DNA from: Verrucomicrobiota bacterium
Lineage (GTDB): Bacteria; Verrucomicrobiota; Verrucomicrobiia; JAWXBN01
Direction of reading: 5' to 3'
NCBI GenBank assembly: GCA_034440155.1
Contig: JAWXBN010000053.1
Location: 20,031-84,030 of the forward strand
DNA length: 64,000 nucleotides
The notes under the pieces: generated by a model
Told to the model about the DNA's origin: nothing
What the model saw: only the letters and a program-made list of their open reading frames with translations
Databases searched by the model: none
Made by a program: the position numbers and the translations under genes
In this document: positions 7,420 through 61,795 of the stretch, piece after piece
How positions within the stretch are numbered: the stretch's first letter is position 1
How the letters are laid out: every line of letters starts with the position of its first letter

Positions 7420-8445
7420 TTATATTGATAACTGAGAAAGAAATTGGCTATTATTTTCACTAAACCAGCGGATATCTTCAATTCCATAAAGCATCATTGC
7501 AATTCTTTCGACTCCCATTCCAAAGGCAAACCCCGTGTATATTTCAGGATCATAACCCACAGATTCAAATACGTGAGGATGAACCAATCCACATCCGGCA
7601 ATTTCCAACCATTCTTTACCCCTGATTTTTTTACCAGGAATACTGAAGTCAATTTCAAAGCTCGGCTCTGTAAAAGGAAAAAAATGGGGGCGGAAACGAA
7701 CCTTTGTGTTTTTCCCTAGTAATTCCCTAAAAAAATATTCCATTGTCCCTTTTAAATCCGCAAGACTGACATTTTCATCAACGTAAAGGCCTTCAATTTG
7801 GTGAAACATGAGCGCATGGGTGGCATCAGGGTTATCCCTGCGGAAACATGATCCGGGAGCAATAATCCTCACTGGAGGCTTGGTGTTCTGCATCGTCCTG
7901 ATTTGCACGGGAGATGTCTGTGTTCTTAATAAATGCCTTCCTAACTTTTCATCACTAATTTGACCATCAATATAGAAAGTATCTTGTTCATTTCGTGCAG
8001 GATGATCAGCCGGGGTATTTAATGCATCAAAATTATAGAATTCAGTCTCAATATCAGGCCCTTCTGCAAGACTAAAGCCTATCGCCCCAAAAATACGCGA
8101 AATCTCCTGAATTGTCCCGTTAATCGGATGGACTGTTCCTGAGGGTAGTCTTTGTACTGACAGAGAAACGTCGAACCCAGAATAGTCGACATGGGGACGT
8201 GTTAAAAACTCTTTTTTGCCTTCAAAGGCTTCTGTCACCGCAGTTTTTACTTCATTTGCCAATTTGCCCACTAAAGGTTTATCCTCCTTAGAAACATCCT
8301 TTAATCCTTCAAGCAAACGGGGCAAAGATCCACTCCTGCTCAGATATTTTATTCTGACCTCTTCCAATGATGCTTGGTCATTCACATTATTCAAAGCTGT
8401 GATTATTTCGCTGCGTAATTGATTCAAATCTTCAACCATACTCAT
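7420..8445 (-). CDS. pheS: phenylalanine--tRNA ligase alpha subunit
   Basis: 341 aa. Class II aaRS motifs including FRRDNPDATHALMFHQIEGLYVDENVS and GFAFGMGVERIAMMLYGI. Confidence 0.9.
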   Translation of the reverse strand: MSMVEDLNQLRSEIITALNNVNDQASLEEVRIKYLSRSGSLPRLLEGLKDVSKEDKPLVGKLANEVKTAVTEAFEGKKEFLTRPHVDYSGFDVSLSVQRLPSGTVHPINGTIQEISRIFGAIGFSLAEGPDIETEFYNFDALNTPADHPARNEQDTFYIDGQISDEKLGRHLLRTQTSPVQIRTMQNTKPPVRIIAPGSCFRRDNPDATHALMFHQIEGLYVDENVSLADLKGTMEYFFRELLGKNTKVRFRPHFFPFTEPSFEIDFSIPGKKIRGKEWLEIAGCGLVHPHVFESVGYDPEIYTGFAFGMGVERIAMMLYGIEDIRWFSENNSQFLSQLSI

Positions 8446-8507
8446 TCATAAAACAATTTACCGACAAAAAGGTCACGCCTTTTCTGATGGGAGTTTACCT
8501 GATATTA

Positions 8508-8543
8508 TAAAAAAACAAAAAAAGGCCCGTATAAACGGGCCTT
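8508..8543 (-). terminator. rho-independent terminator downstream of rplT
   Basis: Minus-strand reading gives AGGCCCGT-TTAT-ACGGGCCT followed by TTTTTTTGTTTTTTT. 8-bp GC stem, 4-nt loop, long U-tract. Confidence 0.75.
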
Positions 8544-8567
8544 TAATAAAATATTTCTTTGAGACAA

Positions 8568-8939
8568 TTATGCTTTTGCCGTTTTTGCCGGCACGGATTT
8601 AGCCTGTTCAATAATTGTAGCGAAAGCCTTAGGGTCATTCACAGCCAAATCAGCCAAAACCTTGCGATCGAGTTCAATCTTCAGTACTTTTAATGCTTCA
8701 ATAAAACGGCTGTAGGTGATCCCTGCGGCACGGGTAGCCGCATTGATACGGACGACCCATAAATTACGAAAATCCCGTTTTTTTACTTTACGATCACGAT
8801 AAGACCATGACTGGCCTTTCATGATGGCGTCTTTAGCATAACGGAAAAGTTTACTGCGACGTCCGCGGAAACCTTTGGCTTTTTCTATCACACGTTTACG
8901 ACGGGCCCGGCTGGCGGGTGCGTTAGTGGCTCTTGACAT
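8568..8939 (-). CDS. rplT: 50S ribosomal protein L20
   Basis: 123 aa, highly basic, conserved L20 sequence (RRKRVIEKAKGFRGRRSKLFRYAKDAIMKG...). Confidence 0.95.
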   Translation of the reverse strand: MSRATNAPASRARRKRVIEKAKGFRGRRSKLFRYAKDAIMKGQSWSYRDRKVKKRDFRNLWVVRINAATRAAGITYSRFIEALKVLKIELDRKVLADLAVNDPKAFATIIEQAKSVPAKTAKA

Positions 8940-8993
8940 ACTTTATATCCTCTTTTTTTATATCTCTTAAAATTTAAATATCAGAATTTATCT

Positions 8994-10906: not shown

Positions 10907-11928
10907 AATTTGCCAATAATTTTACGGGCGATAAAAGGACCTTCGTAAATAAACCCTGTGTACACTTGGATCAATTGAGCGCCCGCATCCAGTTTTTCCT
11001 TCGCATCATCCGCAGTAAAAACACCTCCCGCCCCAATCACTGGAAGTTTCCCTAGTGTCTTTTCCACAATATAACGGATAACCGCCGTCGACCTATTTTT
11101 TAACGGTTTGCCACTTAGGCCCCCTGTTTCACGTGCCCTTGCCGTATCCGGCTGCACGAGCAAATTGCGTGAAATGGTCGTATTTGTAGCGATCACCCCC
11201 GATATGGCCTGTTCCTCCACTACCTCTAATACCTCGTCAAGCTGTGACCATTCCAGATCAGGGGCGATCTTGACAAGGATGGGTTTTCCTCCGAGTTCCT
11301 TATTTTTTTTCTGAAGAACCGAAAATATCGCGCTCAAGTGTTCCTTGTCCTGAAGCTGCCTCAATCCCGGTGTATTAGGGGAACTCACATTGACCACAAA
11401 ATAATCCCCTTCACCGTAAAGTTCAGTAAAAGAAAAAAGATAATCGCTCGCAGCCTCTTCTAGCGGTGTTACCTTACTTTTCCCAAGGTTAATCCCGAGT
11501 GGAATCCGAAGGTTAAAACTCTCATGCAGTTTATGCAGCCGCTGCGCAATTTGCTCAGCACCCTCATTATTAAATCCCATCCGGTTAATCACAGCACCCT
11601 CTGAAGGAATCCTAAAAAGCCTCGGACGCTCATTGCCCGGCTGTCCCTTGGCAGTCACTGTACCGATCTCCACAAACCCAAACCCCAATGCCTGCCATGC
11701 GGGAATCGCAACTGCGTTTTTATCAAAACCAGCAGCGAGCCCGACGGGATTAGGAAAATTCAGGCCGAATACCTCTACCGGTTTCCCCGCCCCCCGGGCA
11801 AATGGTGCCACCATAGACTGCATTAAAAATGTAGGGCCAAACAATTCTAAAAGCCGCATCACTCGGTGATGAATATCCTCCGGATCTTGTCTAAAAAAAA
11901 TCGGTCTGAGTATTTTCTCGTAAATCAC
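10903..11928 (-). CDS. pyrD: dihydroorotate dehydrogenase (quinone), class 2
   Basis: 341 aa. N-terminal membrane-associated helix, GLNFPNPVGLAAGFDKN, GFGFVEIGTVT, NRMGFNNEG motifs. Confidence 0.9.
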   Translation of the reverse strand: MIYEKILRPIFFRQDPEDIHHRVMRLLELFGPTFLMQSMVAPFARGAGKPVEVFGLNFPNPVGLAAGFDKNAVAIPAWQALGFGFVEIGTVTAKGQPGNERPRLFRIPSEGAVINRMGFNNEGAEQIAQRLHKLHESFNLRIPLGINLGKSKVTPLEEAASDYLFSFTELYGEGDYFVVNVSSPNTPGLRQLQDKEHLSAIFSVLQKKNKELGGKPILVKIAPDLEWSQLDEVLEVVEEQAISGVIATNTTISRNLLVQPDTARARETGGLSGKPLKNRSTAVIRYIVEKTLGKLPVIGAGGVFTADDAKEKLDAGAQLIQVYTGFIYEGPFIARKIIGKL

Positions 11929-15566: not shown

Positions 15567-16613
15567 TTATTTTCCGCCAAAAGCTTTCATGATCTCATTA
15601 GTGATTTTTTGAACCGCTTCTTCTGGCACTTCCACTTCTGCTGCTTTGGCCGATTCGTTCCCGGTCTTGCACCCGCAAGAGCCTGTCGCCGTTTTACCAC
15701 GCAAGACTTCCCACGGATCAACTTCACAGAGTTGCACCGGCTTTAATCCCTCCCGGGGATCTGGCATCCCGAGTTTACTCCGGAGTTCAAGCAATTTACC
15801 CACTTCATCACTCGGAATCGTGCTGTCACCCTTTAACGGCATGGCATTCAAAAGGGTACGGCAATAAGCATCCGTGATTTCCATTTTCCAATAAGCATCT
15901 TCCACCCCAAATCCCCAACAAATAACCCCGTGGTTGCCCATCAGGATTGATTGGTGTTCGGCCGCCAATGGCTGGATGATCTCGGCCATTTCTTTCCCGC
16001 CGGGTGTCTTATAAGGGGCCAAGGGAGCGCGCCCCACAAAAACCTCATATTCGGGAATCAAACAAGCGGGAGGCTCGATTCCGGCTATGGCGAAAGCTGT
16101 GGCATGAACCGGGTGGGCATGGACGACGGCTTTAGCATTTGAGTTCCCCTTATAAAGGGCTAGATGGGTCGTGATTTCACTCGTGCGTTTACTGGAACCG
16201 GCAATTTGATTCCCTTCCAGATCCACCATACAAATCATATCCGGAGTCATAAATCCCTTACTCACCAATGTCGGGGTACAAAGGACTTGATTCTGTCCGA
16301 TACGGTAAGAAATATTCCCCCCGTTCCCGTCAACATATTCACGAGTCCAGAGCCGGCGACCCATTTCACAAATCTCTTTTTTGACGCGTTCGGCTTCTTC
16401 CGAAAAAAACATTGCCTGAACAGGATCAGAAGACGAAGATGCCGAAACACTTACGCCACTCTGGGCAATTTGCGCGGAGACAATAATTTTAATCTGATTT
16501 TCAGAAAAAACATCTTTGGCCCCGGGAGTAACGATAACCCCCGCTAGAACAGTAAATTCTTTTTTGCCGGTGGAGGCAAATTGCATCGCATCTTTTTCTG
16601 TGAAGAGTTTCAT
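15567..16613 (-). CDS. class II aldolase (fuculose/rhamnulose-1-phosphate aldolase-like), BMC-targeted
   Basis: 348 aa. Class II aldolase core from about residue 75 (GNGGNISYR...HAHPVHATAFA). C-terminal linker plus amphipathic helix EEAVQKITNEIMKAFGG looks like a BMC encapsulation peptide. About 70-aa N-terminal extension of unknown function. Confidence 0.8.
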   Translation of the reverse strand: MKLFTEKDAMQFASTGKKEFTVLAGVIVTPGAKDVFSENQIKIIVSAQIAQSGVSVSASSSSDPVQAMFFSEEAERVKKEICEMGRRLWTREYVDGNGGNISYRIGQNQVLCTPTLVSKGFMTPDMICMVDLEGNQIAGSSKRTSEITTHLALYKGNSNAKAVVHAHPVHATAFAIAGIEPPACLIPEYEVFVGRAPLAPYKTPGGKEMAEIIQPLAAEHQSILMGNHGVICWGFGVEDAYWKMEITDAYCRTLLNAMPLKGDSTIPSDEVGKLLELRSKLGMPDPREGLKPVQLCEVDPWEVLRGKTATGSCGCKTGNESAKAAEVEVPEEAVQKITNEIMKAFGGK

Positions 16614-16619
16614 AATTTA

Positions 16620-19435: not shown

Positions 19436-20647
19436 TTATTGATGCAGAAGCTTCCAAGCATTCCGCGCGATAATCGTTTCTTCCGATGTCGGGATCAACA
19501 TGATGCGCGTTTTACTCGAAGGCTTCGAGAGCGTTACTTCCGTTTTGGGTGCTGTTTTATTAGTTTCTAAGTCGAGCTCAATCCCGAGCCCGTCGAGACC
19601 CGCGCAAATTGCTTCACGCAGCCAAGGGTTATTTTCGGCAATACCGGCTGTGAAGATCAATACATCACAACCACCAAGCTCGACAAGGAATTGACCGATA
19701 TAATTCCGAATATTCTTCACCAGGACTTTCAGTGCCATTTGCGCATCCACGCTTCCTTCATCAGCAGCCTTCAAGACATCGCGCAAATCCCCTGTGGGTG
19801 TGCCCGCCATTCCTTTGAGTCCGGCTTCTTTCATGAGCATTTGCTCTACTTTTTCCACGCCCAAACCCAGGTCGCGGATCAGGTAGATCAGTGCAAAGCT
19901 ATCAAAGTCACCGACACGGTTATTTTGGGGCAAACCACTCTGCGGTGTCATTCCCCAACTCGAATCCACAGCCACACCACCCTTGACCGCAGCAATCGAT
20001 GAACTCCCCCCCAAATGGCAGGAAATCATCCGCAAATTGCCCGCACCTAAAATCTCGGCGGCACGCTCAGTCACAAACCGGTGGCTGGCTCCATGGAACC
20101 CGTTGCGGCGAATCCCGTATTTATCATGCCACTCTTGAGGAATGGCAAATCGGGTATTCTGCTCGGGAACATGGTCGTAGAAGGCTGTTTCGAATGTACC
20201 GACACAGGGAATCTCTGGATAGTCCTTCTGAAAAAGACGCACCGCATTTACATACGGCGGATTATGCGCGGGCAGGAGGGTATAGATTTCCTCCATGGCC
20301 TTGAGCACATCCTCGGTCATTTCCACAGTCCCACTGATTCCCTTGGCCATTACCGGTTTGAACCCAATCGCTTTGACTTCGTCCATGGAGGTAATCACAC
20401 CTTCCTCGGTATCCATCATGGATTCAAAAGCCATATGAATGGCGGTCGGATAATCTGGAATCGGACAGGTTTTCTTCTGCGCTATCCCGCCCATCTTTTG
20501 ATAAGAATAGATACCGTCCTGCGAACCAATCCGTTCCACCCCTCCTTTACAGAGGAAAGTCTCATCGGGCATCGAAAATACAACGAATTTGAACGAAGTA
20601 CTTCCAATATTGGCTACGAGTATTTTATTTTTTTGCACGGACGACAT
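19436..20647 (-). CDS. ackA: acetate/propionate kinase
   Basis: 403 aa. ILVANIGSTSFKF N-terminal ATPase motif and ASKHH-family core. Confidence 0.9.
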   Translation of the reverse strand: MSSVQKNKILVANIGSTSFKFVVFSMPDETFLCKGGVERIGSQDGIYSYQKMGGIAQKKTCPIPDYPTAIHMAFESMMDTEEGVITSMDEVKAIGFKPVMAKGISGTVEMTEDVLKAMEEIYTLLPAHNPPYVNAVRLFQKDYPEIPCVGTFETAFYDHVPEQNTRFAIPQEWHDKYGIRRNGFHGASHRFVTERAAEILGAGNLRMISCHLGGSSSIAAVKGGVAVDSSWGMTPQSGLPQNNRVGDFDSFALIYLIRDLGLGVEKVEQMLMKEAGLKGMAGTPTGDLRDVLKAADEGSVDAQMALKVLVKNIRNYIGQFLVELGGCDVLIFTAGIAENNPWLREAICAGLDGLGIELDLETNKTAPKTEVTLSKPSSKTRIMLIPTSEETIIARNAWKLLHQ

Positions 20648-21376: not shown

Positions 21377-22054
21377 TTAGACGAGCTCTACCTGTTCCGC
21401 CCTGTCGAGATCACAGGCATTTGCCTCATCGGTATCGATGTGGACCTCGAGTTTAAATGAGGGATCTACACGCACGAGCATGTCTTCAAAAACGGTCGTA
21501 CATTTAGGGGCTGTGATCCGCAGTTTCATATTATCCAAGTGTTTGACACCGTAAAACTCCGCATCAGATGGGCTCATATGAACATGGCGTGAGGCACGGA
21601 TAATCCCATCGGGCATTTCCCACGAGCCTTTCGGCCCGATCAATATCCCGCTGGTAGTCCCTGAAATATCCGCGGACATCCGGACGGGAATATCTAACCC
21701 GAGCTGGATCGAATCGCTGTAAGCAAGCTCGACTTGGTTAAGATTCCGGCATGGCCCGAGAATGCGGAGATTCGGGATGATCCTTTTCTTCGGCCCGATC
21801 AAAGTAACGGTTTCATTCGCCGCAAATTGCCCTTCTTGGTAAAGCCATTTGAAAACGGTGAGCTTGTGCCCGGCACCAAAAAGTTTTTCGACGGCTTCCT
21901 GAGTAAGATGGCAGTGGCGCGCGGAAGAATTTACGACTAATAATGGAACAGTTTTACCCGTCCTCGATGCAGCACCTGCTAATTGATTTTTCAGCGCCTG
22001 GCGGACGAGTTGCTCGACAGTGCCACGATCATAACTTGGATTCCCCTTAATCAT
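21377..22054 (-). CDS. pduL: phosphate propanoyl/acyltransferase PduL with N-terminal encapsulation peptide
   Basis: 225 aa. Two PduL repeats with SARHxHL-type motifs (VNSSARHCHL, IIRASRHVHM). N-terminal helix GTVEQLVRQALKNQL plus linker. Confidence 0.85.
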   Translation of the reverse strand: MIKGNPSYDRGTVEQLVRQALKNQLAGAASRTGKTVPLLVVNSSARHCHLTQEAVEKLFGAGHKLTVFKWLYQEGQFAANETVTLIGPKKRIIPNLRILGPCRNLNQVELAYSDSIQLGLDIPVRMSADISGTTSGILIGPKGSWEMPDGIIRASRHVHMSPSDAEFYGVKHLDNMKLRITAPKCTTVFEDMLVRVDPSFKLEVHIDTDEANACDLDRAEQVELV

Positions 22055-22948: not shown

Positions 22949-25900
22949 TCAGTCTACCTTCAGGATGACTTCCGAGAGGATAATCGAGAGTTCCGCTAGA
23001 CGATAAGGCTTTGGTAAAGCCGCTTTAAAGCCCATTTGGGAAAAACTCATCATTGTTTCTTCTTCCGAATACCCGCTGGAAGCAATCGCCCTCACCTCCG
23101 GATCAATCTGCTTCAATCGCCTGAGGGTTTCGACGCCACCAATGCCTCCTTGGATCGTCAAGTCCAGAATTAAGGCATCAACCCGGGTTCCATTTGCTTT
23201 AAGCTTTAAAAACGCCTCTACACAATCTTCTCCGTGAGATGTTTTGACCGCCTGATACCCGAGCACCTCGATAGTTTCCGCCAAAGTATTCAGGATCATC
23301 TCATTATCATCCATAATCACAATCAATCCCTGTCCCTCGATCACATTCTCGGACATCCTGCGGGGGGATGTATCCTGACTATCCGTAGCTGGTAAGGTCA
23401 CAGAAAAAACAGTTCCCTTTGTGGATGAAGAGGAGAACTGGATGCTTCCCCCGTGTTTACCGATAATCGAATGGCTAATGGCCAACCCCAATCCTGTGCC
23501 ATTTTTCTTGGTGGTGAAATAAGGGTTAAAGATATTCCTTTGAACTTCCCTCGGGATACCCGGCCCATTATCGGCCACTGAAAATGAAACAAATTTAGTC
23601 ACCTGATTGCCCGTGGAGGGTAACTCGATATTCTCCGCATAGACCTTGATTTTTCCACCTTCACCGAGCACCTGCCGTGCATTCAGTGCGAGATTGTATA
23701 TAACCTGTTTGATCTGGCCTTCATCGGCATTCACACGGAATAAATCATCAGGAATATTGTATTCGCAAGCAATTTGCGAACCCCGGAGCGCAAACCGGGA
23801 GGCTTCCGTGAGTAATTCTGCTAAGCTGGTTACCTGTTTGATTGGTGCCCCCCCTCGCGCAAAAGTCAGGAGCTGCTTGGTTAATTGCTGGGCTTCATCA
23901 CAAACTTTGAGGATATCATCGAGATACTCCCGTGTTTTAGACTGGATAACCTCTTGATTTTTCACTAAGGAGGCATTCATCACGATCGTCGACAAGAAGT
24001 TATTGAAATCATGGGCTATACCCCCTGCCAAAATCCCGACTGACTCGAGCCTTTGATTCCGTTCATTCCTTTCATCCTCACGTTTTTTATCGGAGATGGC
24101 ATGAATAAAAAGGATAATTCTGAAAACCTCGCCTTGGGAATTATAAATAGGGCTAAACCGTGTATGCCACCAGAAAAGATCGTCCTCCCCCGTGATCGAC
24201 AGCTCCGCCTCGCATGTCTCCTGTTTCAGCAAACACTCTTCCAGAAGTGCAAACAACCCGTCTCCCGCTTCCTGCGGGAGGAGCCGCCTACATTCATAAA
24301 CGTCGTTTTCCAGCAAGATGTGACAATTCTCCGTGTCGACAACCTTCCTGAACGCGTTATTCAGTGCGACACAATGTAAACTCCCATCATCATTCTTCTC
24401 AATGACTGCCAACATGGTATCTACCCCGTCAAAGATCGATTTAAAGAAAGCTTCACTCTGGATAAGCTGTTCCTCGGCAGACTTTTTATCTGTGATATCA
24501 TGGGCGATTCCTGCCACTCGCCGCACGTTTCCGTCATCATCACGGATGGGGTAACCCCTATCCCTAATCCACCGGACGGATCCGTCAGCCATGACTATCC
24601 GGTACTCCTTGTCGTAAAGGACATCCTTCCCCTGCTGGATCGACATTTTTACTACCCAAGGGCGGTCATCGGGATGGATGGCCTCCAACCAATCGAGCGG
24701 GTCTTTAAGTAGTTTGTCTACCGATCTCCCCCAGACCTTCTCATACGATGGGTTCACATAGACCATCAGGTCGGTCTTCGCATCCCATATCCAGAAAACA
24801 TCATAGATATTTTCCGTAATCTGAAGGAACCGCTCTTCATTTTCTTTAAGCTTTTCCTCTATGATTTTTCTCTCTGTGATGTCTAGGGCAAACCACACCG
24901 TATAAATATTCTCAGGATTACTCTCGACTAAATCACTCCCGATCAGTGCCATGGCCAAGGCCCCGTCTTTACGGATGAACTCCTGTTCGATCAACGTCGG
25001 CCCCCCTTCATTATTCCTCTCCCTGACAAACTCATGGGTCTGACCAGGCCGTTTCATCATGAGGGAATCAATTTTGAGTCTGCCCGCTTGGATATCCTCA
25101 TGGCTGTAACCCGTCATTTTTAGGAAATATTCATTACAATCCCGGATCACCCCTTTTGCCCCCGTGAAAAAGACACCGACAAGATCAGACTCAAAAACCT
25201 TTCTGAACCGGGATTCATTTTCCTTGAGGGCATTTTGTGTCTTGACCCTATTAGACACATCACGACTGCTGCAAACAAGATGCATTTCATCATCACCCTG
25301 GGCAGAAAGCGATTTTATAGTGGACTCTAGCCACTTATAGTCACCCCCTTTACAGGCAAACCGATAGGTAACACTACAAGCACTTAACTCATCCTTGAGC
25401 ATGGAGAAATGCTGTCCAACAAGTATTTGCTCATCCGGATGAACAAACTCCATGATCTTCTGACCAATTAACTCTTCTGGATCATGACCGATTATCACAC
25501 TACACGAAGGCGAAACATATTGAAGGGTCAAATCCTCATCTAAAAGACAAATCATGTCCGAGGAATGCTCGGCAAGCAAACGGTAACGGGCTTCACTTGC
25601 AAGGGAGGCTTCCTCCGCCGTTTTCCTTTCGGTGATATCCCTGCACAAACCGATCACTTGACACACAGCACCTCCACTATCCCTCTTAAAAACCGCCTCA
25701 CTACTGCGGAACCAGCGGAATCCGCCCCCTTTAAGGATCATACGGTACTCCATATCGATCACATCACCGTCATTGAGTCCGAGATACAGACCCTGGTGCT
25801 CGATAAATGCCGGATAATCATCGGGATAAATCACTGTTTCTATTACTTTAGTTCCCATTTCGATAATCTCTTCCGGTGTGTAGCCCGCCCGGTCAAAAAT

Positions 25901-34957: not shown

Positions 34958-35083
34958 TTTGCGCGCCCGCGCAAGCTCCCAAGAAGACCCATCATGCCTC
35001 TTTTGATATTTTGATGCAAGTACCCATTGCCCTTATAATGGACTCCTGTGGTTCATGAGGAAAACACCCGAGGACTATAAAAT

Positions 35084-47487: not shown

Positions 47488-47543
47488 AAACAGGATTCAA
47501 CGCCCAGTCCGATGGACTGTGAAGAGCAATTTGCGCAGGAAAA

Positions 47544-48668
47544 TCATTTTCCCCTCACAAGCCAAGGCCATTTTCTCATCCCTTTGGACTGCCATTTTCT
47601 CGGATCAATGCTTTTTAGATAATCATAGGCGTCAGAGATATTCGAGGGAGGAACCTCGACCCCGGTGACATTACTGGTGAAAAGGAACATTCCTTTTCCA
47701 CCATCCGTGCATTCCAGAAAATAGTCGACTTCGTCACGGACATCCTGACCTGTTCCGTAAGGTAAAGTCCGCGTGACAGACAAACCCGTCATGAATTTCG
47801 GTGTTTTTCCGGTTTTTGTCTTTTTCGAGTGGATCACCAAGGGATCAACGTTACATTCATATTGGAATCCCTGAAACCCACTGAACCCGATATCGAGAAT
47901 ATCATCAATCAAGGGCATGATGTTCCCGTCACAGTGATGGAAGAGCTGTATCCCCGCTTCAAGCAGTGGTTCAATAGAATAACGGGCATGTTTCCAATAA
48001 CGTTGTTTTAAGAAACGTGGGGAAACCATGGGTGACTTATTATCGCAAATATCGTGTCCGCAAAATAGCATGGGGATAAAGTCCATTTCTTTGAATAATT
48101 CCACAAGTTCTTTATTCTTCTCCCGAGCAATAACAGCATCCGCCCAGAAAATTTTCTCCACTTCATCTGGATATAGTCCACAAGCCTCGAGGAATGCCTT
48201 GTATCCATATTGGAAATAGAGTGCGAAATTTGCAACCGCTTCCCAATGAGTAGGAATCAATTCGATTCCCTTCATCTTGGGCAGAAACGTCTGATACCCC
48301 TTTAAACAATCCTCTTTGTACTTGCCGTATGGGAAGTCTTTGAGGACACCCTCCTCAGTGTTGGGTATTTTCTCAGCCCTTTCAAGTAGGTCTTCTGGCA
48401 TGAAATGTTCAAAATTATGCTCTTCGACACTACCCTGCCGCATTTCCTCTTCGGAATGAGGAATGATCGCTGTAAAGACGATAGCATCCACCCCGAGCCG
48501 CAAATTCGCCTCGACCACCCCCGCAAAGGCATCCTTCATAAATATATCGAGTGGCATTCCCGCAATTTGCGCAATATTGCTTGCCCCGAGATTCCATCCA
48601 CCAAACATGGGAATCCGGTCAACAGGCTCTTCATTGAGTTGTGCTAAAATTCTTTCTTTTCGAGTCAT
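47544..48668 (-). CDS. uroporphyrinogen decarboxylase (URO-D)-family protein (MtaA/CmuA-like methyltransferase fold)
   Basis: 374 aa. N-terminal ERILAQLNEEPVDRIPMF typical of the URO-D family. Confidence 0.5.
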   Translation of the reverse strand: MTRKERILAQLNEEPVDRIPMFGGWNLGASNIAQIAGMPLDIFMKDAFAGVVEANLRLGVDAIVFTAIIPHSEEEMRQGSVEEHNFEHFMPEDLLERAEKIPNTEEGVLKDFPYGKYKEDCLKGYQTFLPKMKGIELIPTHWEAVANFALYFQYGYKAFLEACGLYPDEVEKIFWADAVIAREKNKELVELFKEMDFIPMLFCGHDICDNKSPMVSPRFLKQRYWKHARYSIEPLLEAGIQLFHHCDGNIMPLIDDILDIGFSGFQGFQYECNVDPLVIHSKKTKTGKTPKFMTGLSVTRTLPYGTGQDVRDEVDYFLECTDGGKGMFLFTSNVTGVEVPPSNISDAYDYLKSIDPRKWQSKGMRKWPWLVRGK

Positions 48669-48846: not shown

Positions 48847-51249
48847 ATGCAACCACTCTATAAATACCGCCCGGTTACCCGAGACCTTGAAACCCGTGAT
48901 GTCGTCCGCGCCTCAGTTATCCGTGTCGCCATTCGCAAACAAGGCAAATCCTCAATCACCTTTGATTCCTTCGCCGCATCAAAACTCTTTGGATTTATTT
49001 GCTCCGGCGACGCCGACATGGTGAATTACAAAAAGAAATTCGGGGATGGAGAAGAAATCCCGGGAACACTCAAATTAGATATCCTCTCAGACGATGTCAT
49101 CCGTGTACGGTATGCAGAGGAAAATGAGGTTCCTGAAAATCAAACAGCCATGCTCGACTGCCATCTCTCGGGCCCGAAGAAATGCAAGATCAAGGTAGAG
49201 AAAACAAAATACCAAGCCTCTATTTTAGTCGAAGGCAGTAAAGAACAAAAAGTTTCCAGAGAAAATACCCAAGTCATCATCGAGACGGCCAAGGTCAGGG
49301 TTCTCATTGATTATGAACCGTACCGCCTCACGGTCACCGATCTCAAGGGTAAAAAAATCTGTGGTGTCAGCGGAGCTGAAAAAAACCATTTTGGCACCTG
49401 GGACACGATCGGCACATCCATTTGTAGAACTATGGACTCCCAATCACCGATCGCCGCGGAGAGCTTTGATCTCGAAACCGATGAATGCATTTACGGTCTC
49501 GGTGAAAAATTCCTCAAACTCAATAAAGTCGGCCAAACCCTCGACCTTTGCATGCAAGACGGCCTCGGTGTTTATTCTCCCCGTACCTATAAAAATGTGC
49601 CGTTCCACGTCTCCACCCATGGTTACGGGGTGTTTTTTAACCACCACAGTATGATGACTTATTGGGTCGGCAGCAGTGGAGCCGCTGATATCCAAGTCGC
49701 AGCGGCAGACGACTTCCTCGATTATTTCCTGATGTTTGGCCCCATTTCTAAGGTTCTTTCCCTTTACACTGATATTACGGGGAAAGGTCAAATGCCCCCA
49801 GCATGGACTTTTGGTTATTGGCAGGCAAAATTCTCCTACCGCTCAGCCATCGAAACCCTCGAGGTGGCGCGCAAATTGCGCGAGAATAAAGTACCCTGTG
49901 ACGTTATCCACGTGGATACTGATTGGTTCAAGAAAGACTGGCACTGTGACATGGAATTCGATCCGGTTGACTTCCCCGATCCGGAGGGTTGGCTCAAGGA
50001 GCTGAAAGAAAATGGTTTTAATGTTTCTCTCTGGCAAATGCCTTATATCAAGGAGCCCAGCCCCCTCTTTAGCGAACTGGCTGCGGTGGATGGGTTCATT
50101 AAGACAAAAGATGGAGAAATCTATAATCTGCGCCCTGAATTCAATGAGGTGGCCGCGCCAATTGATTTCACTAATCCTAAAGCCGTAGAAATCTTTAAAA
50201 GGTATTGCGCCAGAATCTTGAGAATGGGTGTGCGTTGTATCAAAACTGATTTTGGTGAGGAAGCCCCCACCGATGGAGTGTATCATAATGGCTTGGACGG
50301 TACCCATAACCATAATCTCTACCCGCTCATTTATAATAAAGCTGCTTTCGAAGTGACAGAGGAAGTCCATGGCCCCGGAAACGGCGTCGTCTGGGCGCGT
50401 TCAGCCTGGGCGGGAAACCAACGTTATCCCCTACACTGGGGTGGCGATGTCTCTCCCCTCTGGGAAGCCCTCGGACCGCAACTCGCAGGGGGACTGTCTT
50501 TTGGATTGTCCGGATTCCAATTCTGGAGCCATGACATCGGTGGATTCCTTGGGGAAACCGCTGACCATAAGCTCATGACCCGTTGGCACCAGTTTGGTTG
50601 TTTGAATTCCCATGCGCGTAATCATGGTTGTGGCGAACGCGAAATCTACCGTTTACCTAAGAAATACTTTAAACTTTGCCGGGACGCTATCCGTCTCCGT
50701 TATAAATTACTCCCCTATATCATGGGCCAATCCTACCAGTGTGTGGAGTCGTCCCTGCCCGTGCTTAGGGCTATGGCCGTGGATTTCCAAAATGATCCGA
50801 ATACTTGGAATCTCGCCGATCAATACATGTTTGGCGTTCACCTGCTTGTCGCTCCCGTCTTTAGCAAGGATGACTCCCGTCGTTTCTACCTGCCCGCAGG
50901 CGAGTGGACAGACTGGTGGACCGGAAGAATAGTCACGGGAAATCAATGGATCACACAGACAAATATTCCACTGAGCCGTTTTCCCCTCTACATCAAAGAA
51001 GGCGGCATCATCGGTTTACAACCCGTAATGAATTATGTGGATGAGAAAAAGGTCGATACCTTGATCCTTCGGATCGCTCCATTGAGCAGCAAGGGAGTCA
51101 CCACGACCACTTTGATTGTTAACGGCAAAAAAGTCCCCGTTACTTATCAGTCTGTGAAAGGCAAACACTTGGTCACTGTCGGGAAAGGCGAATTCTCAGT
51201 CAAGATCGAAGGTTCCCTCTCCAAAAAAGCTAAAATAACGCGCCGTTAG
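48847..51249 (+). CDS. glycoside hydrolase family 31 (alpha-xylosidase/alpha-glucosidase-like)
   Basis: 800 aa. GH31 catalytic blocks IHVDTDWF...CDMEFD (nucleophile region), KTDFGEEAP, WARSAWAGNQRYPLHWGGD. Confidence 0.85.
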   Translation: MQPLYKYRPVTRDLETRDVVRASVIRVAIRKQGKSSITFDSFAASKLFGFICSGDADMVNYKKKFGDGEEIPGTLKLDILSDDVIRVRYAEENEVPENQTAMLDCHLSGPKKCKIKVEKTKYQASILVEGSKEQKVSRENTQVIIETAKVRVLIDYEPYRLTVTDLKGKKICGVSGAEKNHFGTWDTIGTSICRTMDSQSPIAAESFDLETDECIYGLGEKFLKLNKVGQTLDLCMQDGLGVYSPRTYKNVPFHVSTHGYGVFFNHHSMMTYWVGSSGAADIQVAAADDFLDYFLMFGPISKVLSLYTDITGKGQMPPAWTFGYWQAKFSYRSAIETLEVARKLRENKVPCDVIHVDTDWFKKDWHCDMEFDPVDFPDPEGWLKELKENGFNVSLWQMPYIKEPSPLFSELAAVDGFIKTKDGEIYNLRPEFNEVAAPIDFTNPKAVEIFKRYCARILRMGVRCIKTDFGEEAPTDGVYHNGLDGTHNHNLYPLIYNKAAFEVTEEVHGPGNGVVWARSAWAGNQRYPLHWGGDVSPLWEALGPQLAGGLSFGLSGFQFWSHDIGGFLGETADHKLMTRWHQFGCLNSHARNHGCGEREIYRLPKKYFKLCRDAIRLRYKLLPYIMGQSYQCVESSLPVLRAMAVDFQNDPNTWNLADQYMFGVHLLVAPVFSKDDSRRFYLPAGEWTDWWTGRIVTGNQWITQTNIPLSRFPLYIKEGGIIGLQPVMNYVDEKKVDTLILRIAPLSSKGVTTTTLIVNGKKVPVTYQSVKGKHLVTVGKGEFSVKIEGSLSKKAKITRR

Positions 51250-51334
51250 ATTGATTGGCTTTTTTAGAAGACTGTAAAAAATATCTTATCGCAAAAGGAC
51301 ACGCAATTTGCTTTTTTAATGGATCATACCCCCT

Positions 51335-51867: not shown

Positions 51868-53112
51868 CTATTTCGTTTTCTTGGATTTTGAGGCATGAAC
51901 CTTTGCCGCTACTTTCAGGCGCAGGCCATTCAATCGGATAAATCCGGTGGCATCATCTTGGTTATAGGCTTTTGTCGGATCCGCATCCATCGTGGCAATT
52001 TGCGGGTTGTAGAGGCTCACGGGACTCTTACGCCCCGCTACCATGATATTTCCCTTATAAAGTTTCACCTTCACTGTTCCGGTCACATTCTTTTGCGACT
52101 CGGTAATGGCGGCTTGGAGGAATTCACGTTCAGGGGCAAACCAGAATCCGTAATAAATCAGTTCAGCATATTTCGGAATCAACCCATCACGGATGTGCAT
52201 GACTTCGCGGTCCATCGTGAGTGTTTCCATCTGGCGGTGGGCAAACATCAGGATTGATCCGCCGGGGGTTTCATACACACCACGGCTTTTCATCCCGACA
52301 AAACGGTTCTCGACCAAGTCAACACGGCCTACACCATGTTTACCCCCGAGTTTATTGAGTGTTTTCATGACTTGAAGAGGGTTCATGGCCTTACCATTGA
52401 CGGCCACACAATCTCCCTTCACAAAATCCAAGGTCACATACTCGGCCTTGTCTGGCGCATCTTCAGGGGAAACAGAGAGTTTATACATGTCCTTGTATTT
52501 CGGATCGAACGCATCAAGCCAAGGATCTTCCATAATCCCGGCCTCATAACTAATGTGGAGCAAATTACGATCCATCGAGTAGGGCTTCTTTGCACTAGCC
52601 TCGACAGGAATTTTTTTGCGTGCGGCATACTCGATCATTTCAGCACGTCCGGGAAAATCATGGCGGAAATGGGCATCACGCCATGGGGCGATAATCTCGA
52701 TATCGGGTGCCAAGGCTGCGGCAGCCAGCTCAAAACGGACTTGGTCATTACCTTTTCCAGTCGCTCCGTGGGCAATGGCATCAGCACCTTCTTTCACCGC
52801 GATTTCCACCATGCGTTTGGCGATGAGAGGCCGGGCGATACTCGTCCCGAGGTAGTATTGCCCCTCATAAACTGCATTAGCCTGGATCATCGGATAAATA
52901 AAGTCCTTGGCGAATTCCTCCTGGAGATTGTCGATATAACATTTGCTTGCACCCGTTTTGAGCGCTTTTTTATTAAGTCCTCTAAGCTCCTCCTCCTGCC
53001 CTACATCCGCACAAAATGCGATAATTTCTGCGTCGTGGCGGTCTTTCAACCATGTCAATAGGACGGAAGTATCCAGTCCACCGGAATAAGCGAGTACGAT
53101 TTTCATAAGCAA
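51868..53112 (-). CDS. argG: argininosuccinate synthase
   Basis: 414 aa. [10 protein letters not shown]-loop, conserved ArgG core. Confidence 0.92.
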
Positions 53113-55306: not shown

Positions 55307-56062
55307 CTATTTTTCCCGGCAAAAAACGATTTGCCTCGGGGAAGTTCCGCGAAAGGGCCGCCCTTGATAATCCCCATATCGCTTCAAGAGTTTGAACCCA
55401 TTGGATTCGATAAGCAATTTCAGTTCCTCAGGGTAGAAAACCCTCAGTTTGAGTTCATGACTCTCCCCACATTTTCCATTCGAAAACCTCTGGTGCCAGA
55501 CCAAATGATTGATTTGCCGGACCGGATCATAATAACCAGTTTCCTCCACAATCACCTCGCATTTTGCTTTTTTATCCTGATAACGGCTGATCAGGAACCG
55601 ATCATCTTTGACCCTTGTGAGAAAATTAAGGTTTGGATTTGGCACATCAATGGCAAAGATCCCCCCTGGACGAAGCGATTTTTTTACCGAAGTAAAAAAA
55701 CGCTTTAATTCAGCAACCCTCACTAAATGCGCCATCGAGCCCATAGGCGCATAGACAAATTCAAACTCCCATCCTTTAAAATCCAAGCTTAAAACATCTT
55801 GAACCTCATAACCTATATTGAGTTTCGCCCGTTTCGCTTTCTTGCGGGCAAATTGCACGAGGCCACTCGAAAGATCGACACCCGTCACTGATTTTCCGGA
55901 GGCGGCAAGAGCCTGCGCAATTTGCCCGGTCCCGCAAAAAAGCTCTAGGATAGCGCCTTTGAATGGTTTGGATTGTCCCACCCAAAACGGGATATCGTTG
56001 CGTTTTAGAGGATCAACCATCAAGTCATAAATATCGGGATCATAATAAAAAGGTGTCATCAC
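55307..56062 (-). CDS. class I SAM-dependent methyltransferase
   Basis: 251 aa. Motif I ILELFCGTGQIAQALA. Confidence 0.7.
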   Translation of the reverse strand: MMTPFYYDPDIYDLMVDPLKRNDIPFWVGQSKPFKGAILELFCGTGQIAQALAASGKSVTGVDLSSGLVQFARKKAKRAKLNIGYEVQDVLSLDFKGWEFEFVYAPMGSMAHLVRVAELKRFFTSVKKSLRPGGIFAIDVPNPNLNFLTRVKDDRFLISRYQDKKAKCEVIVEETGYYDPVRQINHLVWHQRFSNGKCGESHELKLRVFYPEELKLLIESNGFKLLKRYGDYQGRPFRGTSPRQIVFCREK

Positions 56063-58233: not shown

Positions 58234-59111
58234 TTCTTAACCTCAATATTTGATCCGCGCCATTTGAGTTTTTCTCTCAACACCTGATAGTATGAATACC
58301 CCTCAAGTTTGGCTAGCTGTACTTTTTCCTTGGCTTTCCGGAGCACCACCCGGTCAGTAGGTTCTAAAGCAAATTGCTCCTGCCCGTCCACAGTCAAATT
58401 AATTAAATAATCTTGCTCATGAATACGCGCTGAAATACATGACCGGTCACTGAGCACAATCGAACGGTTAGCCAAGGCATGTGGACATATCGGTGTAAGC
58501 ACAAAAACATCCGCCTCCGGATGCACCACCGGGCCTCCGCCTGAAAGATTATAAGCCGTCGAACCTGTGGGGGTCGAAACAATAAGCCCATCCCCCGCAT
58601 AAGTGGTGAATTCCTCGTGATCAACCTGGATATCTATACGGATGGTCCTGAGCACTTCCGCACGACAGATCACAACCTCATTAAGACTCAATGATCGAAA
58701 GACCGGTTCATCATCCCGATAAACCTCCACGTGGATTTGAGCGCGCGAACTTGTTATAAATTTTCCAGCCAAAATAGCGGCCATGGCCCCTTTAGCCTCA
58801 TCAATTCCTACCGCCGTCAGGAATCCCAACCCCCCCAGGTTAATTCCCAAAACCGGTGTTTGTGAGCCCTTTAACCCGTGGGCGACCTGCAATAAAGTCC
58901 CGTCCCCTCCCAAGATAATAATCAAATCCGATTTTCTCCCGAGATCCTTGACCTCATGGGTCTCTTCCTTCCCCATCAAACAGGCGGTATTTGTATCCAA
59001 GAAAGCCTTGATCCCCCTCCTTTTTGCTGCATCCAATATAAAACGGGTAATCCCAGCCGATTCCTGCTTTTGGCTGTTTGCGATGATCCCTATGGCTTTG
59101 ACGTTATTCAT
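58230..59111 (-). CDS. nadK: NAD+ kinase
   Basis: 293 aa. GGDGTLL motif (ILGGDGTLLQ) and NE/DG region. Confidence 0.85.
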   Translation of the reverse strand: MNNVKAIGIIANSQKQESAGITRFILDAAKRRGIKAFLDTNTACLMGKEETHEVKDLGRKSDLIIILGGDGTLLQVAHGLKGSQTPVLGINLGGLGFLTAVGIDEAKGAMAAILAGKFITSSRAQIHVEVYRDDEPVFRSLSLNEVVICRAEVLRTIRIDIQVDHEEFTTYAGDGLIVSTPTGSTAYNLSGGGPVVHPEADVFVLTPICPHALANRSIVLSDRSCISARIHEQDYLINLTVDGQEQFALEPTDRVVLRKAKEKVQLAKLEGYSYYQVLREKLKWRGSNIEVKK

Positions 59112-59845
59112 TTTTTCCTGAGCCCTATTAAAAACTCACGGTTTCCTTCCGCTCCAAAAATGGGTGAGTCCATTAATCCTATGACATTGAATCCGGTGTC
59201 TTGTGCAAACCCTCTGATATCCTGCGCGATTTGATCTTGGATATCCCGGTCTTTTAATACTCCACGGCACCGATCCATCACCTCTCTACCCGCTTCAAAC
59301 TGCGGCTTGATCAATACCACAGTATCGGCACCGGCAACAATCTTATTGAATAAGGGACGCAGGATTTTCTTCAATGAAATAAATGAAACATCCACACAGG
59401 AAAACTCCAAGGGTAGATCAAATTGCTCACTTTCGAGATTCCGAGCATTAATATTCTCCCGGGAGACCACGCGTGCGTCCTGTTGGAGTTTCCACGAGAG
59501 TTGGCCATGGCCCACATCAATGGCAAAAACTTTTTTTGCTCCGTGCTGTAAAAGGCAATCGGTAAATCCACCCGTCGATGCCCCGACATCCAGACAGATT
59601 TTCCCGGAGACATCGAGATGAAATTCCGCCAAGGCCGCCTCGAGCTTGAGCCCACCGCGGCTGACATATTTCTCATGGGTTTTAAGGGTAACCACAGATT
59701 CGGGTTTTGTCTTGTGATCGGCTTTCGCGACCATTTGACCATCGACAAATACTTCGCCGGCCATAATCATCCGCTTAGCTTTTTCACGGCTTTCAATAAT
59801 CCCGCGCTCAACAATCAAAATGTCTAAGCGCGTGGTCCGTGCCAT
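59108..59845 (-). CDS. tlyA: TlyA-family 16S/23S rRNA (cytidine-2'-O)-methyltransferase
   Basis: 245 aa. N-terminal S4 domain (RLDILIVERGIIESREKAKRMIMAGEV) plus FtsJ-like MTase (LDVGASTGGFT). Confidence 0.8.
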   Translation of the reverse strand: MARTTRLDILIVERGIIESREKAKRMIMAGEVFVDGQMVAKADHKTKPESVVTLKTHEKYVSRGGLKLEAALAEFHLDVSGKICLDVGASTGGFTDCLLQHGAKKVFAIDVGHGQLSWKLQQDARVVSRENINARNLESEQFDLPLEFSCVDVSFISLKKILRPLFNKIVAGADTVVLIKPQFEAGREVMDRCRGVLKDRDIQDQIAQDIRGFAQDTGFNVIGLMDSPIFGAEGNREFLIGLRKK

Positions 59846-59857
59846 AAGAGCAATCTG

Positions 59858-61795
59858 TTAGACCGCAGCAGGTGTTTTTACTGTAACGGCTGATGGTTCC
59901 ACAGAATCCACAAAAAAACCGAGAACCTTCTGAACCCCGTTTTTCGCAGTTAACCCGTATTTTTCACGCAAAATCTCAGGTTTCCCATGCTCGACAAATT
60001 CATCCGGCCAACCGACACGGGCCACTGGTTTTTCGATTTTCATTTCTTGGAGCTGCTCGATGACAATACTGCCGAAACCACCCATAAGAGCATGATCCTC
60101 AAAGGTCAGGAGGGCGTCGGCCTCCCGCGCAAATTGCTCCAGAATCTGGTTATCAAAAGGTTTAGCGAAACGGGCATTAATCACGGCCACTGAATATCCC
60201 TGTTTTTCAAGGAGGGTAGCAGCTTCCTGCGCCATGCCCAAAATCATGCCATAACTGATAATCGCCACCTTATGGTCTTTTTCGCCCGCCTTGAAAGGAT
60301 GAATCACCTCGGCTTTACCGATCTCCAGGACTTTTGGTTTATCCTTCGGGGTCACACCAGTGCCGATACCCCTCGGGTAACGCATCGCGATCGGACCGTC
60401 ATTATATTGGAGTCCCGTATAAAGCATGTCGACGAACTCGTCCTCATCCTTCGGAGCCATGATCGTCATATTTGGCAGACAACGCATATAGGCAATATCG
60501 AAAAGGCCATGATGGGTCGGACCATCGTCCCCGGAAAGACCAGCCCGGTCCATACAGAAAAAGACATTAAGATTCTGCAAGGCCACATCGTGATGGATCA
60601 TGTCATAAGCGCGTTGCAAGAATGTCGAGTAAATGGCGCAAACCGGCTTTAATCCCATCGTCGCCATGCCCGCCCCAAAAAGGACAGCATGCTCCTCGGC
60701 AATACCGACATCATAAAATTGTGCAGGCACTTTCTTTTGAAAATGGATCAAACCTGTCCCAGTGGACATCGCCCCGGTAATACCGATCACGCGTTTATCC
60801 TTTAATGCAAATTTGGCCAGTTGGTGCCCTAAAAGCTCGGAGAATGTAGGGGTCGGCATGCCTGTGGTCTCGCCTGTCTCCAGAGTATACGCCCCTAAAC
60901 CGTGGAATTTATCTGGCTTGGCCAAGGCGGGTTCATACCCCTTACCTTTGATCGTCTGGATGTGGAGGATGACCGGTTCGTCCTGATCTTTGAGGAATTT
61001 AAAAGTCTTTACCAAGAGATCAACATCATGGCCGTCAATCGGCCCGTAATACCGGAGGCCCAGATCCTCGAAAAACACGCTGCGTGCCTCGGGTAAAATC
61101 ATCCCTTTCACGGCTTCTTCAGCACGTTTTGCAAAACCGAGGACACCCTTGCCTCCGATCCGTTCGATAAATTTCTCCGCTTCCTTGTGAATGTGGGAAT
61201 ACTGTTCGCTGGTGACGATTTTATTCAGGTAATGAGCGATCGCCCCGACATTTTTAGAGATGGACCATTCATTATCATTGAGGACAACGATCATTTTCTT
61301 TGTGCATTGGGAGATATTATTCAGGCCCTCGAAAGTCACACCACACGTGAAAGCGGCATCCCCGGCCACAGCAATAACATGTTCATCAGTCCCCTTGATA
61401 TCTCGGGCGGTCGCCATACCTAAGGCTGCCGAAACAGCCGTTCCAGCATGTCCTGCGCCAAAGCTGTCGTGCGCGCTTTCTGTACGGAGCATGAACCCAT
61501 TTAATCCTTGATACTGGCGAATGGTATCAATGCGGTTGCGGCGACCAGTCAGGATTTTATGCACATAAGCCTGATGACTCACATCCATCAGGATTTTATC
61601 CTTGGGGGAATCGAATACATGATGGAGAGCAATCGTCAACTCCACGACCCCGAGATTAGGGCCGAGATGTCCCCCGGTCTTTGAAAGTGCCTGAATGAGC
61701 TCTTGACGGATTTCTTCCGCAAGAGTCTTCATTTCATCCAGATGAAGTTTTTTAACATCATCGGGCGAATTAATTTTGTCCAAAATCTTAGCCAT
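59858..61795 (-). CDS. dxs: 1-deoxy-D-xylulose-5-phosphate synthase
   Basis: 645 aa. TPP-binding GGHLGPNLG, GDG...N motif, transketolase-like domains. Confidence 0.95.
   Translation of the reverse strand: MAKILDKINSPDDVKKLHLDEMKTLAEEIRQELIQALSKTGGHLGPNLGVVELTIALHHVFDSPKDKILMDVSHQAYVHKILTGRRNRIDTIRQYQGLNGFMLRTESAHDSFGAGHAGTAVSAALGMATARDIKGTDEHVIAVAGDAAFTCGVTFEGLNNISQCTKKMIVVLNDNEWSISKNVGAIAHYLNKIVTSEQYSHIHKEAEKFIERIGGKGVLGFAKRAEEAVKGMILPEARSVFFEDLGLRYYGPIDGHDVDLLVKTFKFLKDQDEPVILHIQTIKGKGYEPALAKPDKFHGLGAYTLETGETTGMPTPTFSELLGHQLAKFALKDKRVIGITGAMSTGTGLIHFQKKVPAQFYDVGIAEEHAVLFGAGMATMGLKPVCAIYSTFLQRAYDMIHHDVALQNLNVFFCMDRAGLSGDDGPTHHGLFDIAYMRCLPNMTIMAPKDEDEFVDMLYTGLQYNDGPIAMRYPRGIGTGVTPKDKPKVLEIGKAEVIHPFKAGEKDHKVAIISYGMILGMAQEAATLLEKQGYSVAVINARFAKPFDNQILEQFAREADALLTFEDHALMGGFGSIVIEQLQEMKIEKPVARVGWPDEFVEHGKPEILREKYGLTAKNGVQKVLGFFVDSVEPSAVTVKTPAAV

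Follow-up and report, generated by a model that had tools for sequence, protein, structure and literature searches.

Why does one nine-letter word recur so often through unrelated genes of a single bacterial chromosome? The question is raised by a 64,000-nucleotide stretch of Verrucomicrobiota DNA (contig JAWXBN010000053.1, hereafter the window), in which a sequence-only reading had reported at least 22 exact copies of a 9-mer or its reverse complement. An exact search for GCAAATTGC on both strands returned 23 matches, 12 with A and 11 with T at the centre on the plus strand. Since GCAATTTGC is simply GCAAATTGC read on the opposite strand, the two constitute one palindrome with a degenerate centre, GCAA-W-TTGC, written GCAAWTTGC below. 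As the following sections detail, a dyad-symmetric process acting at the level of DNA favours the gain and retention of this word in long-resident DNA.

The excess is large by every null model that we applied. Dinucleotide shuffles of the window contained a mean of 1.01 copies and a maximum of 3, and the Markov-model comparison that the sequence-only reading had proposed gave 0.7-1.0 expected copies at orders 1-4, which corresponds to an enrichment of ~23-33x. The 40-50x claimed earlier agrees with the value pooled over the clade described below (40x). No 9-mer is more frequent in the window than GCAAWTTGC, and the runners-up overlap it; its single-mismatch variants are present in 0-4 copies each, the S-centre form in 3. 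All 23 positions listed by the sequence-only reading turned out to be real (17 were off by at most 2 nt, the largest offset being 12 nt). Three of its four 8/9 near-matches were recovered, at 29418, 34650 and 59418, but that at 8230 was not, the closest one-mismatch copy lying at 8259.

All clade statistics given here derive from ~159 kb of the motif-bearing clade and from ~20 kb for each other species; contigs and loci are cited by our L numbers. Over the 104 sites pooled from the clade the word is the centre of an extended dyad of ~19 bp, ccc-G-M-GCAAWTTGC-K-C-ggg, in which 70% of sites have G at position -2, with C at +2 as its mirror image, position -1 holds A or C, and positions -5 to -3 are C-rich, in line with the GC-rich flanks noticed before. 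Apart from these dyad-consensus positions the flanks of the window sites are unique, so the copies are not parts of a longer repeat, and the host genes are diverse; the copies do lie in unrelated genes and not in duplicated DNA. A dispersed repeat or mobile element, such as a repetitive extragenic palindrome (REP) or a miniature inverted-repeat transposable element (MITE), was rejected on the basis of these flanks and of the 88% of sites that are coding. Because GCAAATTGC and GCAATTTGC are the same palindromic site, equal counts in the two orientations are automatic, and the earlier argument from this equality against Chi-like polarity is uninformative. A word of the Chi or KOPS (FtsK-orienting polar sequence) kind was rejected because a palindrome cannot be polar and because the non-palindromic words of relatives show no orientation skew.

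Recognition of GCAAWTTGC takes place at the level of DNA and not of protein or RNA. In the window 20 of the 23 copies lie in coding sequence, where a synonymous-codon shuffle that keeps the proteins and the codon usage yielded 2.5 +/- 1.45 copies (maximum 8) and a shuffle of codon order 0.7. Among the 92 coding sites of the pooled set, 46 are read as xxG-CAA-WTT-GCx (Q-I/F-A) and 42 as xGC-AAW-TTG-Cxx (K/N-L), leaving the Cys-requiring frame GCA-AWT-TGC nearly unused (4 sites). More than one frame is used, as the sequence-only reading stated, but the frames are not arbitrary, as two of the three dominate. Intergenic copies are proportionate (12 of 104 sites against 11.3% noncoding DNA). The codons of the favoured frames are the preferred ones (CAA 60%, TTT 64%, AAA 68%, AAT 76%), and the tripeptides QIA and QFA occur 4.8x and 4.0x above expectation. 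Since these tripeptides are themselves inflated, it is the word in the DNA that drives the peptide, not the peptide that drives the word.

That the word could be a by-product of protein motifs, of codon-pair bias or of a dispersed repeat or mobile element has in its favour that 14 of the 20 coding copies of the window encode Q-I/F-A. We nevertheless consider it extremely improbable: the null that preserves proteins and codon usage gives 2.5 copies and not 20, the two frames are near-equal in the clade, intergenic copies are as frequent as the noncoding share predicts, flanks are unique, QIA and QFA are inflated, and synonymous positions inside the sites are frozen between species (see below). 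Protein motif, codon bias and repeat element are refuted by these observations, and the codon-aware nulls together with the frozen synonymous positions bear out the earlier claim that conservation is at the DNA level.

Distribution, conservation and gain of the sites

Exact matches to proteins of the window lie on metagenome contigs only. To place the word phylogenetically we used the relatives of the Dxs protein of the window in reference genomes, all of which are Verrucomicrobiota. Identity to the window protein is 90% for L007 (metagenome-assembled genome (MAG) CAYTAI01, GCA_964435715.1), 74% for L008 (JANRIZ01) and ~63% for the rest, mostly Chthoniobacterales. GCAAWTTGC is dense in contigs of the same species and in L007 (1.0 per kb); L008 and all 78 other loci lack it or have it at the chance rate. 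Homologues of the LMF1-fusion protein led to three more close lineages at 66-69% identity (L206/L207, L208, which is the same MAG as L007, and L209/L210), in which the word occurs at 0.63-0.95 per kb, 30-50x over expectation. In all, it is carried by at least 4 species-level relatives at 0.6-1.0 per kb; over every sampled clade contig the density is 0.36-1.0 per kb, which amounts to hundreds of copies per megabase, and the enrichment is 23-50x per contig. The pooled 158,962 bp contain 104 perfect sites against 2.61 expected (40x), 12 copies of the centre-S variant against 0.88 (14x) and 100 of the other one-mismatch variants against 48.3 (2.1x). The one-mismatch excess sits in G1>A (5.6x), A3>C/G (3.5x) and A4>T (3.6x), with C2>T at 1.4x; the sole depleted form is G1>C (0.24x).

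Comparison of homologous genes by codon alignment revealed that the sites are held with unusual strictness. At ~71% identity in DNA between L007 and the window, synonymous sites are close to saturated. Even so, all 5 alignable window sites are kept 9/9 in the CAYTAI01 genome, against 6.3-7.0% of control 9-mers; the corresponding figures are 3 of 3 against 5.6% in L209 and 1 of 5 against 5.4% in L206. Codons that specify the same amino acid inside sites are identical in 18 of 19 cases in CAYTAI01 (background 45%, P=6e-6), 11 of 13 in L206 (45%, P=0.005) and 9 of 11 in L209 (44%, P=0.013). Among the ~99.8% identical contigs of the window species (L001-L006), which differ at very few positions overall, no difference falls inside any site.

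Gain is equally evident. Every lineage has private sites, many of them made by amino-acid replacement: dxs has EQFA where the motif-free outgroup has ETYA, tlyA has AQFA against RGFA, and the histidine kinase has RNLL against QDMI or KDLI. Some sites were built from sequences 5-7 differences away (e.g. ACC-TAC > CAA-TTT). The word has been gained repeatedly, even via amino-acid replacement, and then held fixed at synonymous positions.

The gaps in the distribution are informative as well. Two stretches of the window lack sites, 1-11159 and 34963-47525. The former begins with a low-GC (37-38%) exosortase/Wzz/polysaccharide-export cluster, and the latter holds the gene at 35084-36610 (508 aa, no Pfam hit) and an efflux block at 37782-43417. 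Both this gene and this block are missing from L206/L208, where the kinase, SelR, pepA and LMF1 genes adjoin, which identifies them as insertions between the same flanking genes. Taken together, the inserted and low-GC blocks (the exopolysaccharide/exosortase cluster, 35084-36610 and 37782-43417) span 14.6 kb and hold 0 sites, whereas the density elsewhere is 0.47 per kb (P=0.001); a toxin-antitoxin stretch (L209:1-4400) also contains 0. GCAAWTTGC accumulates only in long-resident chromosomal DNA.

The 23 sites of the window are listed in Table 1. The methyltransferase at 55307-56062, which carries two of them, is of the Methyltransf_11/25 type and does not belong to a DNA methyltransferase family. 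As to gene content, positions 1-10900 (GC 35-42%) encode an exosortase (EpsH), a Wzz/GNVR tyrosine-kinase-like protein, Poly_export and a beta-barrel porin, followed by pheS, rplT and infC. Positions 14556-22866 form a Planctomycetes/Verrucomicrobia-type microcompartment and sugar-aldehyde locus (malate/lactate dehydrogenase, class II aldolase, aldehyde dehydrogenase, EutN/CcmL vertex protein, acetate kinase, PduL and a DeoR regulator). The motif-free block at 37782-43417 consists of DUF2490, a CusB-like protein with a heavy-metal-binding domain and a CusA/AcrB-type RND (resistance-nodulation-division) efflux protein. Just past the right end of the window, L001:1-7796 has 13 sites in 7.8 kb (1.7 per kb), the highest density seen; its genes are cobS/cobT, YjbQ and those for a Zn-ribbon protein, a UbiE-type methyltransferase and an HNH_repeat protein, with a neighbouring gene of 275 or 288 aa depending on the strain.

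Table 1 Sites of GCAAWTTGC in the window, with host genes (coordinates and strand), coding context and state in relatives.
Host gene or region	Site	Coding context and state in relatives
pyrD (10903-11928, -)	11160..11168	sense CGC-AAT-TTG-CTC (R-N-L-L)
pyrD	11546..11554	sense GAG-CAA-ATT-GCG (E-Q-I-A)
class II aldolase (15567-16613, -)	16465..16473	A-Q-I-A
class II aldolase	16576..16584	M-Q-F-A
acetate kinase (19436-20647, -)	19604..19612	sole window copy in frame GCA-ATT-TGC (A-I-C)
acetate kinase	20032..20040	GGC-AAT-TTG-CGG (G-N-L-R)
PduL phosphotransacylase (21377-22054, -)	21822..21830	G-Q-F-A
multi-PAS hybrid histidine kinase (22949-26431, -)	23769..23777	S-Q-I-A
DCC1-LMF1 fusion gene (29478-31412, -)	29519..29527	R-K-L-L; 9/9 in L208 and L209; centre W>C in L206
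DCC1-LMF1 fusion gene	29639..29647	C-K-L-L; kept in L208 and L209; centre W>C in L206
DCC1-LMF1 fusion gene	30529..30537	G-Q-F-A; common to L206; deleted in L208/L209
DCC1-LMF1 fusion gene	31204..31212	E-Q-F-A; kept in L208 and L209
leucyl aminopeptidase pepA (33503-34957, -)	34626..34634	E-Q-F-A; private to window species (L206: FETFIA)
pepA 5' edge / intergenic	34954..34962	
intergenic, between nitroreductase gene (46834-47487) and 47544-48668 gene	47526..47534	
374-aa URO-D-like gene (47544-48668, -)	48562..48570	A-Q-I-A
GH31 glycosidase (48847-51249, +)	49871..49879	R-K-L-R; with flanks, GCGCGCAAATTGCGCG
intergenic, 54 nt downstream of GH31	51303..51311	
argininosuccinate synthase (51868-53112, -)	51995..52003	P-Q-I-A
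class I SAM (S-adenosylmethionine) methyltransferase (55307-56062, -)	55848..55856	V-Q-F-A
class I SAM methyltransferase, second site	55917..55925	G-Q-I-A
NAD kinase (58230-59111, -)	58369..58377	E-Q-F-A; 9/9 in L007
dxs (59858-61795, -)	60129..60137	E-Q-F-A; 9/9 in L007; motif-free outgroup L008: GAA-ACC-TAC-GCG (E-T-Y-A)

Searches beyond the reference genomes returned the word in other settings too. A scan of metagenome contigs for two sites yielded, among the matches listed, one true clade contig (L121) and probably a second (L122); nearly all the rest of the matches listed are chance pairs or tandem/CRISPR-like arrays containing the word. Such regular arrays, with periods of ~19-144 bp and a repeat unit that includes GCAAWTTGC, were seen in L124, L192, L161, L202, L110 and L106, and are false positives of two-site searches. 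Two scans of viral contigs yielded nothing beyond local arrays that resemble operators or iterons, and no phage carrying dispersed sites was among the returns. In four IMG/VR contigs (L211, L287, L296 and L307) the word is the core of clustered ~25-bp palindromes, CGATGAG(T/G)-GCAAWTTGC-(A/C)CTCATCG, spaced 23-69 bp apart; these have the look of operators or iterons in arrays and are not related to the word that recurs genome-wide. Finally, L209/L210 (GCA_030285445.1 / GCA_030285465.1) were deposited as Oscillatoria amoena NRMC-F 0135. They carry GCAAWTTGC at 0.63 per kb and no copy of HIP1 (highly iterated palindrome 1 of cyanobacteria), indicating that they are not cyanobacterial DNA, and most likely they represent a Verrucomicrobiota associate binned into a cyanobacterial assembly. 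The possibility that they are cyanobacterial and that the word is an alternate HIP was rejected, as HIP1 is missing and the word is not among Elhai's alternates.

Words of other Verrucomicrobiota

An order-3 Markov scan of the Dxs-anchored loci for hyper-frequent words revealed that other clades have words of their own. The most widespread, GCCTAACGA(G), is enriched 50-80x in ~16 Chthoniobacterales species (L010, L013, L023, L025, L029, L030, L039, L044, L051, L054, L059, L063, L069, L074, L080 and L083), with up to 25 copies in 21.9 kb (1.1 per kb). It occurs in all four stop-free frames (29, 33, 45 and 28 copies), is ~2x denser in intergenic DNA and forms no inverted pairs. Three further words, CCCTAACGA in L012, GC(C)GCTAACGAC in L015 and TCGGCTAAC in L026, are dialect-like variants with CTAAC in common, and hyper-frequent words were also found in L027 (GGGTTTACAAC), in L065 and L081 (AAGATCGACA) and in L055 (AGGTTCCCCA). 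These words of other clades are enriched 20-160x, non-palindromic, equally frequent in both orientations within each 20-kb locus, and set in unique flanks.

When placed on the Dxs tree, the words follow clades, within which some lineages have lost or switched their word: GCAAWTTGC is confined to the clade of the window, L007, L206 and L209, and GCCTAACGA, CCCTAACGA, TCGGCTAAC, AAGATCGACA and GGGTTTACAAC belong to other clades. One locus, L065, holds both AAGATCGACA (14 copies) and residual GCCTAACGA (4 copies), as if caught during a switch between words. GCAAWTTGC is thus a clade-specific, hyper-iterated DNA word within a phylum-wide pattern of lineage-specific words. It had not been recognised as a described motif by the sequence-only reading, and our literature search on it and on the words of relatives likewise returned primers and unrelated constructs only; in the searchable literature we found no description of GCAAWTTGC, GCCTAACGA or the other words, and no uptake sequence in Verrucomicrobia.

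Mechanisms weighed

The sequence-only reading had left a list of mechanisms open. On the present evidence Chi-like, simple repair-driven and methylation-only processes are disfavoured, and an uptake- or transformation-type drive is favoured, by inference. Tentatively, we propose that GCAAWTTGC may tag self DNA for natural transformation and that its copies may have accumulated through drive. During natural transformation, fragments bearing the word would have preference when cells of the clade bind, take up or recombine DNA; mutations that improve a match would then be passed preferentially to other cells, where they would replace the resident allele, and this molecular drive would yield ~0.4-1 site per kb. 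The dyad symmetry would imply that the recognising factor reads duplex DNA symmetrically, as a dimeric receptor could. Alternatively, the reader might be a palindrome-specific methyltransferase whose mark is preferred by the uptake or recombination machinery, as in a recent report on cyanobacterial HIP1.

We favour uptake because the signatures that Findlay & Redfield list for uptake sequences, namely a proteome imprint of inflated tripeptides, frames with preferred codons and absence from genes without homologues in relatives, are present; because the one-mismatch halo is graded, not depleted (2.1x; centre-S 14x); because sites built 5-7 substitutions away need a graded advantage; because sister clades have non-palindromic words with dialects; and because the palindromic analogue HIP1 is reported to raise natural transformation (more than 100-fold for methylated HIP1 in a recent report, and it is now proposed to be an uptake signal). 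A graded halo of variants is expected for a balance of mutation and drive with a graded preference.

Two other explanations have to be set against the transformation tag. The sites could each be under purifying selection for a chromosomal function, with the dyad bound by an abundant dimeric protein that is nucleoid-associated or organises the chromosome. The extended dyad, perfect over ~19 bp, is typical of a dimeric DNA-binding protein, the A-tract centre AAWTT with W strongly preferred over S fits shape readout, positions and synonymous sites are strongly conserved between species, and the same case has been argued for HIP1 (Xu et al.). We judge this explanation unlikely all the same, since more than 1000 sites per genome would each need an advantage outweighing amino-acid replacements in enzymes, the unrelated, non-palindromic words of related clades would each demand a different organising protein, structural spacing does not predict the absence from inserted DNA, and no candidate protein was identified. 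The other explanation is a biased mismatch repair tied to methylation, on the lines of Elhai's HIP model or of very-short-patch repair by Dcm/Vsr: the palindrome would be the target of a methyltransferase, a partner repair nuclease would turn near-matches into full sites, and the word would multiply without taking part in DNA exchange. The word is a W-centred palindrome, as is the CCWGG of Dcm/Vsr; alternate HIPs co-occur with matching methyltransferases (Elhai); and the commonest one-mismatch form, G1>A (= C9>T), is an outer-position transition that recalls the outer-position bias described by Elhai. However, repair predicts depletion of precursors, and the transition variants stand instead at 5.6x (G1>A) and 1.4x (C2>T), with one-mismatch forms overall at 2.1x. 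A single T:G repair can only collect existing 8/9 matches and cannot give a 40x enrichment or sites 5-7 differences away, and the non-palindromic 9-11-mers of sister clades do not fit. The 159 kb annotated contain no gene for a DNA methyltransferase or Vsr, which is weak evidence in so small a sample. We regard repair of this kind as quite improbable.

Several observations weigh against a transformation tag. Pfam annotation of ~159 kb (the window and all clade contigs) found no ComEC, DprA, secretin, Vsr or DNA methyltransferase, and our search of the searchable literature found neither natural competence in Verrucomicrobiota nor uptake or transformation experiments, the hosts being uncultured. 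Classical DNA uptake sequences (DUS) and uptake signal sequences (USS) are non-palindromic, and the sites that their receptors (ComP, predicted ComN) read are asymmetric. From conservation of positions between species Xu et al. 2018 argued for selection on HIP1 and not neutral drive; the site conservation seen here is compatible with continuing drive and with selection alike. Lastly, the core genes pheS-rplT-infC (7.4-10 kb, ~40% GC) carry 0 sites.

The annotation returned two further observations. Adjoining the LMF1 gene, L209:10862-19006 encodes two prepilin N-methyl proteins, DUF7305, a GerE response regulator and a HisKA_3 kinase, one more N-methyl protein and a protein of 623 aa without a Pfam hit. 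This minor-pilin-like cluster is a candidate type IV pilus or competence pseudopilus; it is not at the matching position in the window. Of such machinery, the annotated contigs of the clade showed only prepilin-type (N_methyl) genes, in L209/L210. Those methyltransferases that the window encodes belong to the class I SAM enzymes, UbiE/Methyltransf_11 type.

Known systems compared

Sequence-tagged DNA uptake is experimentally known in two proteobacterial families only, and the function of HIP1 has been debated for 30 years. The words described here provide an independent case in a different, mostly uncultured phylum, with a sharp palindromic word and non-palindromic counterparts in neighbouring clades. 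It is conceivable, though we hold this with some reserve, that the Verrucomicrobiota (the clade of the window and much of the Chthoniobacterales) have lineage-specific self-DNA tags with dialects on the scale of the phylum, and that the clade of the window switched to a dyad-symmetric tag. If so, uptake-sequence biology would have arisen independently for a third time, the earlier cases being Neisseriaceae/Pasteurellaceae and possibly cyanobacterial HIP1, and abundant uncultured soil and freshwater bacteria would be routinely transformable, with recombination policed by sequence tags. Many lineages with different words amount to a natural comparative system, in which co-variation of words with minor pilins or methyltransferases could reveal the receptor. 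The words are also strong taxon markers for metagenome binning and for flagging foreign DNA, for example verrucomicrobial contigs in assemblies labelled as cyanobacterial.

Among known short words, Chi and KOPS are likewise over-represented and scattered through genes, but they are strand-polar within a replichore and enriched few-fold, and a palindrome cannot be polar. The CCWGG of Dcm/Vsr is also a W-centred palindrome raised by a DNA-level process. In enterobacteria its excess is slight and goes along with a deficit of the T:G-derived variants, whereas GCAAWTTGC is enriched 40x and its transition variants are not depleted.

In density, enrichment and conservation the word fits the class of hyper-iterated words to which the sequence-only reading had likened it, that of DUS, USS and HIP1. 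HIP1 (GCGATCGC) and the alternate HIPs are palindromes over-represented 15-300x, at 500-2500 per Mb; GCAAWTTGC is palindromic too and enriched 40x in the pooled set. HIPs lie in genes and spacers, are conserved beyond coding constraint, are replaced by other words in some lineages and are linked to natural transformation. They differ from GCAAWTTGC in being even-length, GC-rich and built on GATC/CGATCG or other methyltransferase sites, whereas the present word is of odd length, has an AT-rich W-centred core without GATC or CpG, and has non-palindromic sister words. HIP1 itself occurs 0-2 times in the clade contigs. GCAAWTTGC therefore fails as a member of the HIP1 family, both by composition (AT core, odd length) and by its non-cyanobacterial host.

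The likeness to the DUS of Neisseriaceae (GCCGTCTGAA and dialects) and the USS of Pasteurellaceae (AAGTGCGGT / ACAAGCGGT) extends to more features. Those are defined by uptake bias, and GCAAWTTGC is likened to them by sequence signatures and not claimed as a member; they are asymmetric, whereas GCAAWTTGC is a perfect dyad in another phylum that forms no inverted pairs at terminators. As here, they are 9-12-bp words present at ~1 per kb in coding and noncoding DNA, and the likeness includes inflated tripeptides, preferred-codon frames, placement at poorly conserved residues and absence from genes without homologues in relatives. It also includes lineage-specific words or dialects that follow phylogeny: DUS dialects do so in Neisseriaceae (Frye 2013), and the words of the Verrucomicrobiota track phylogeny in the same way.

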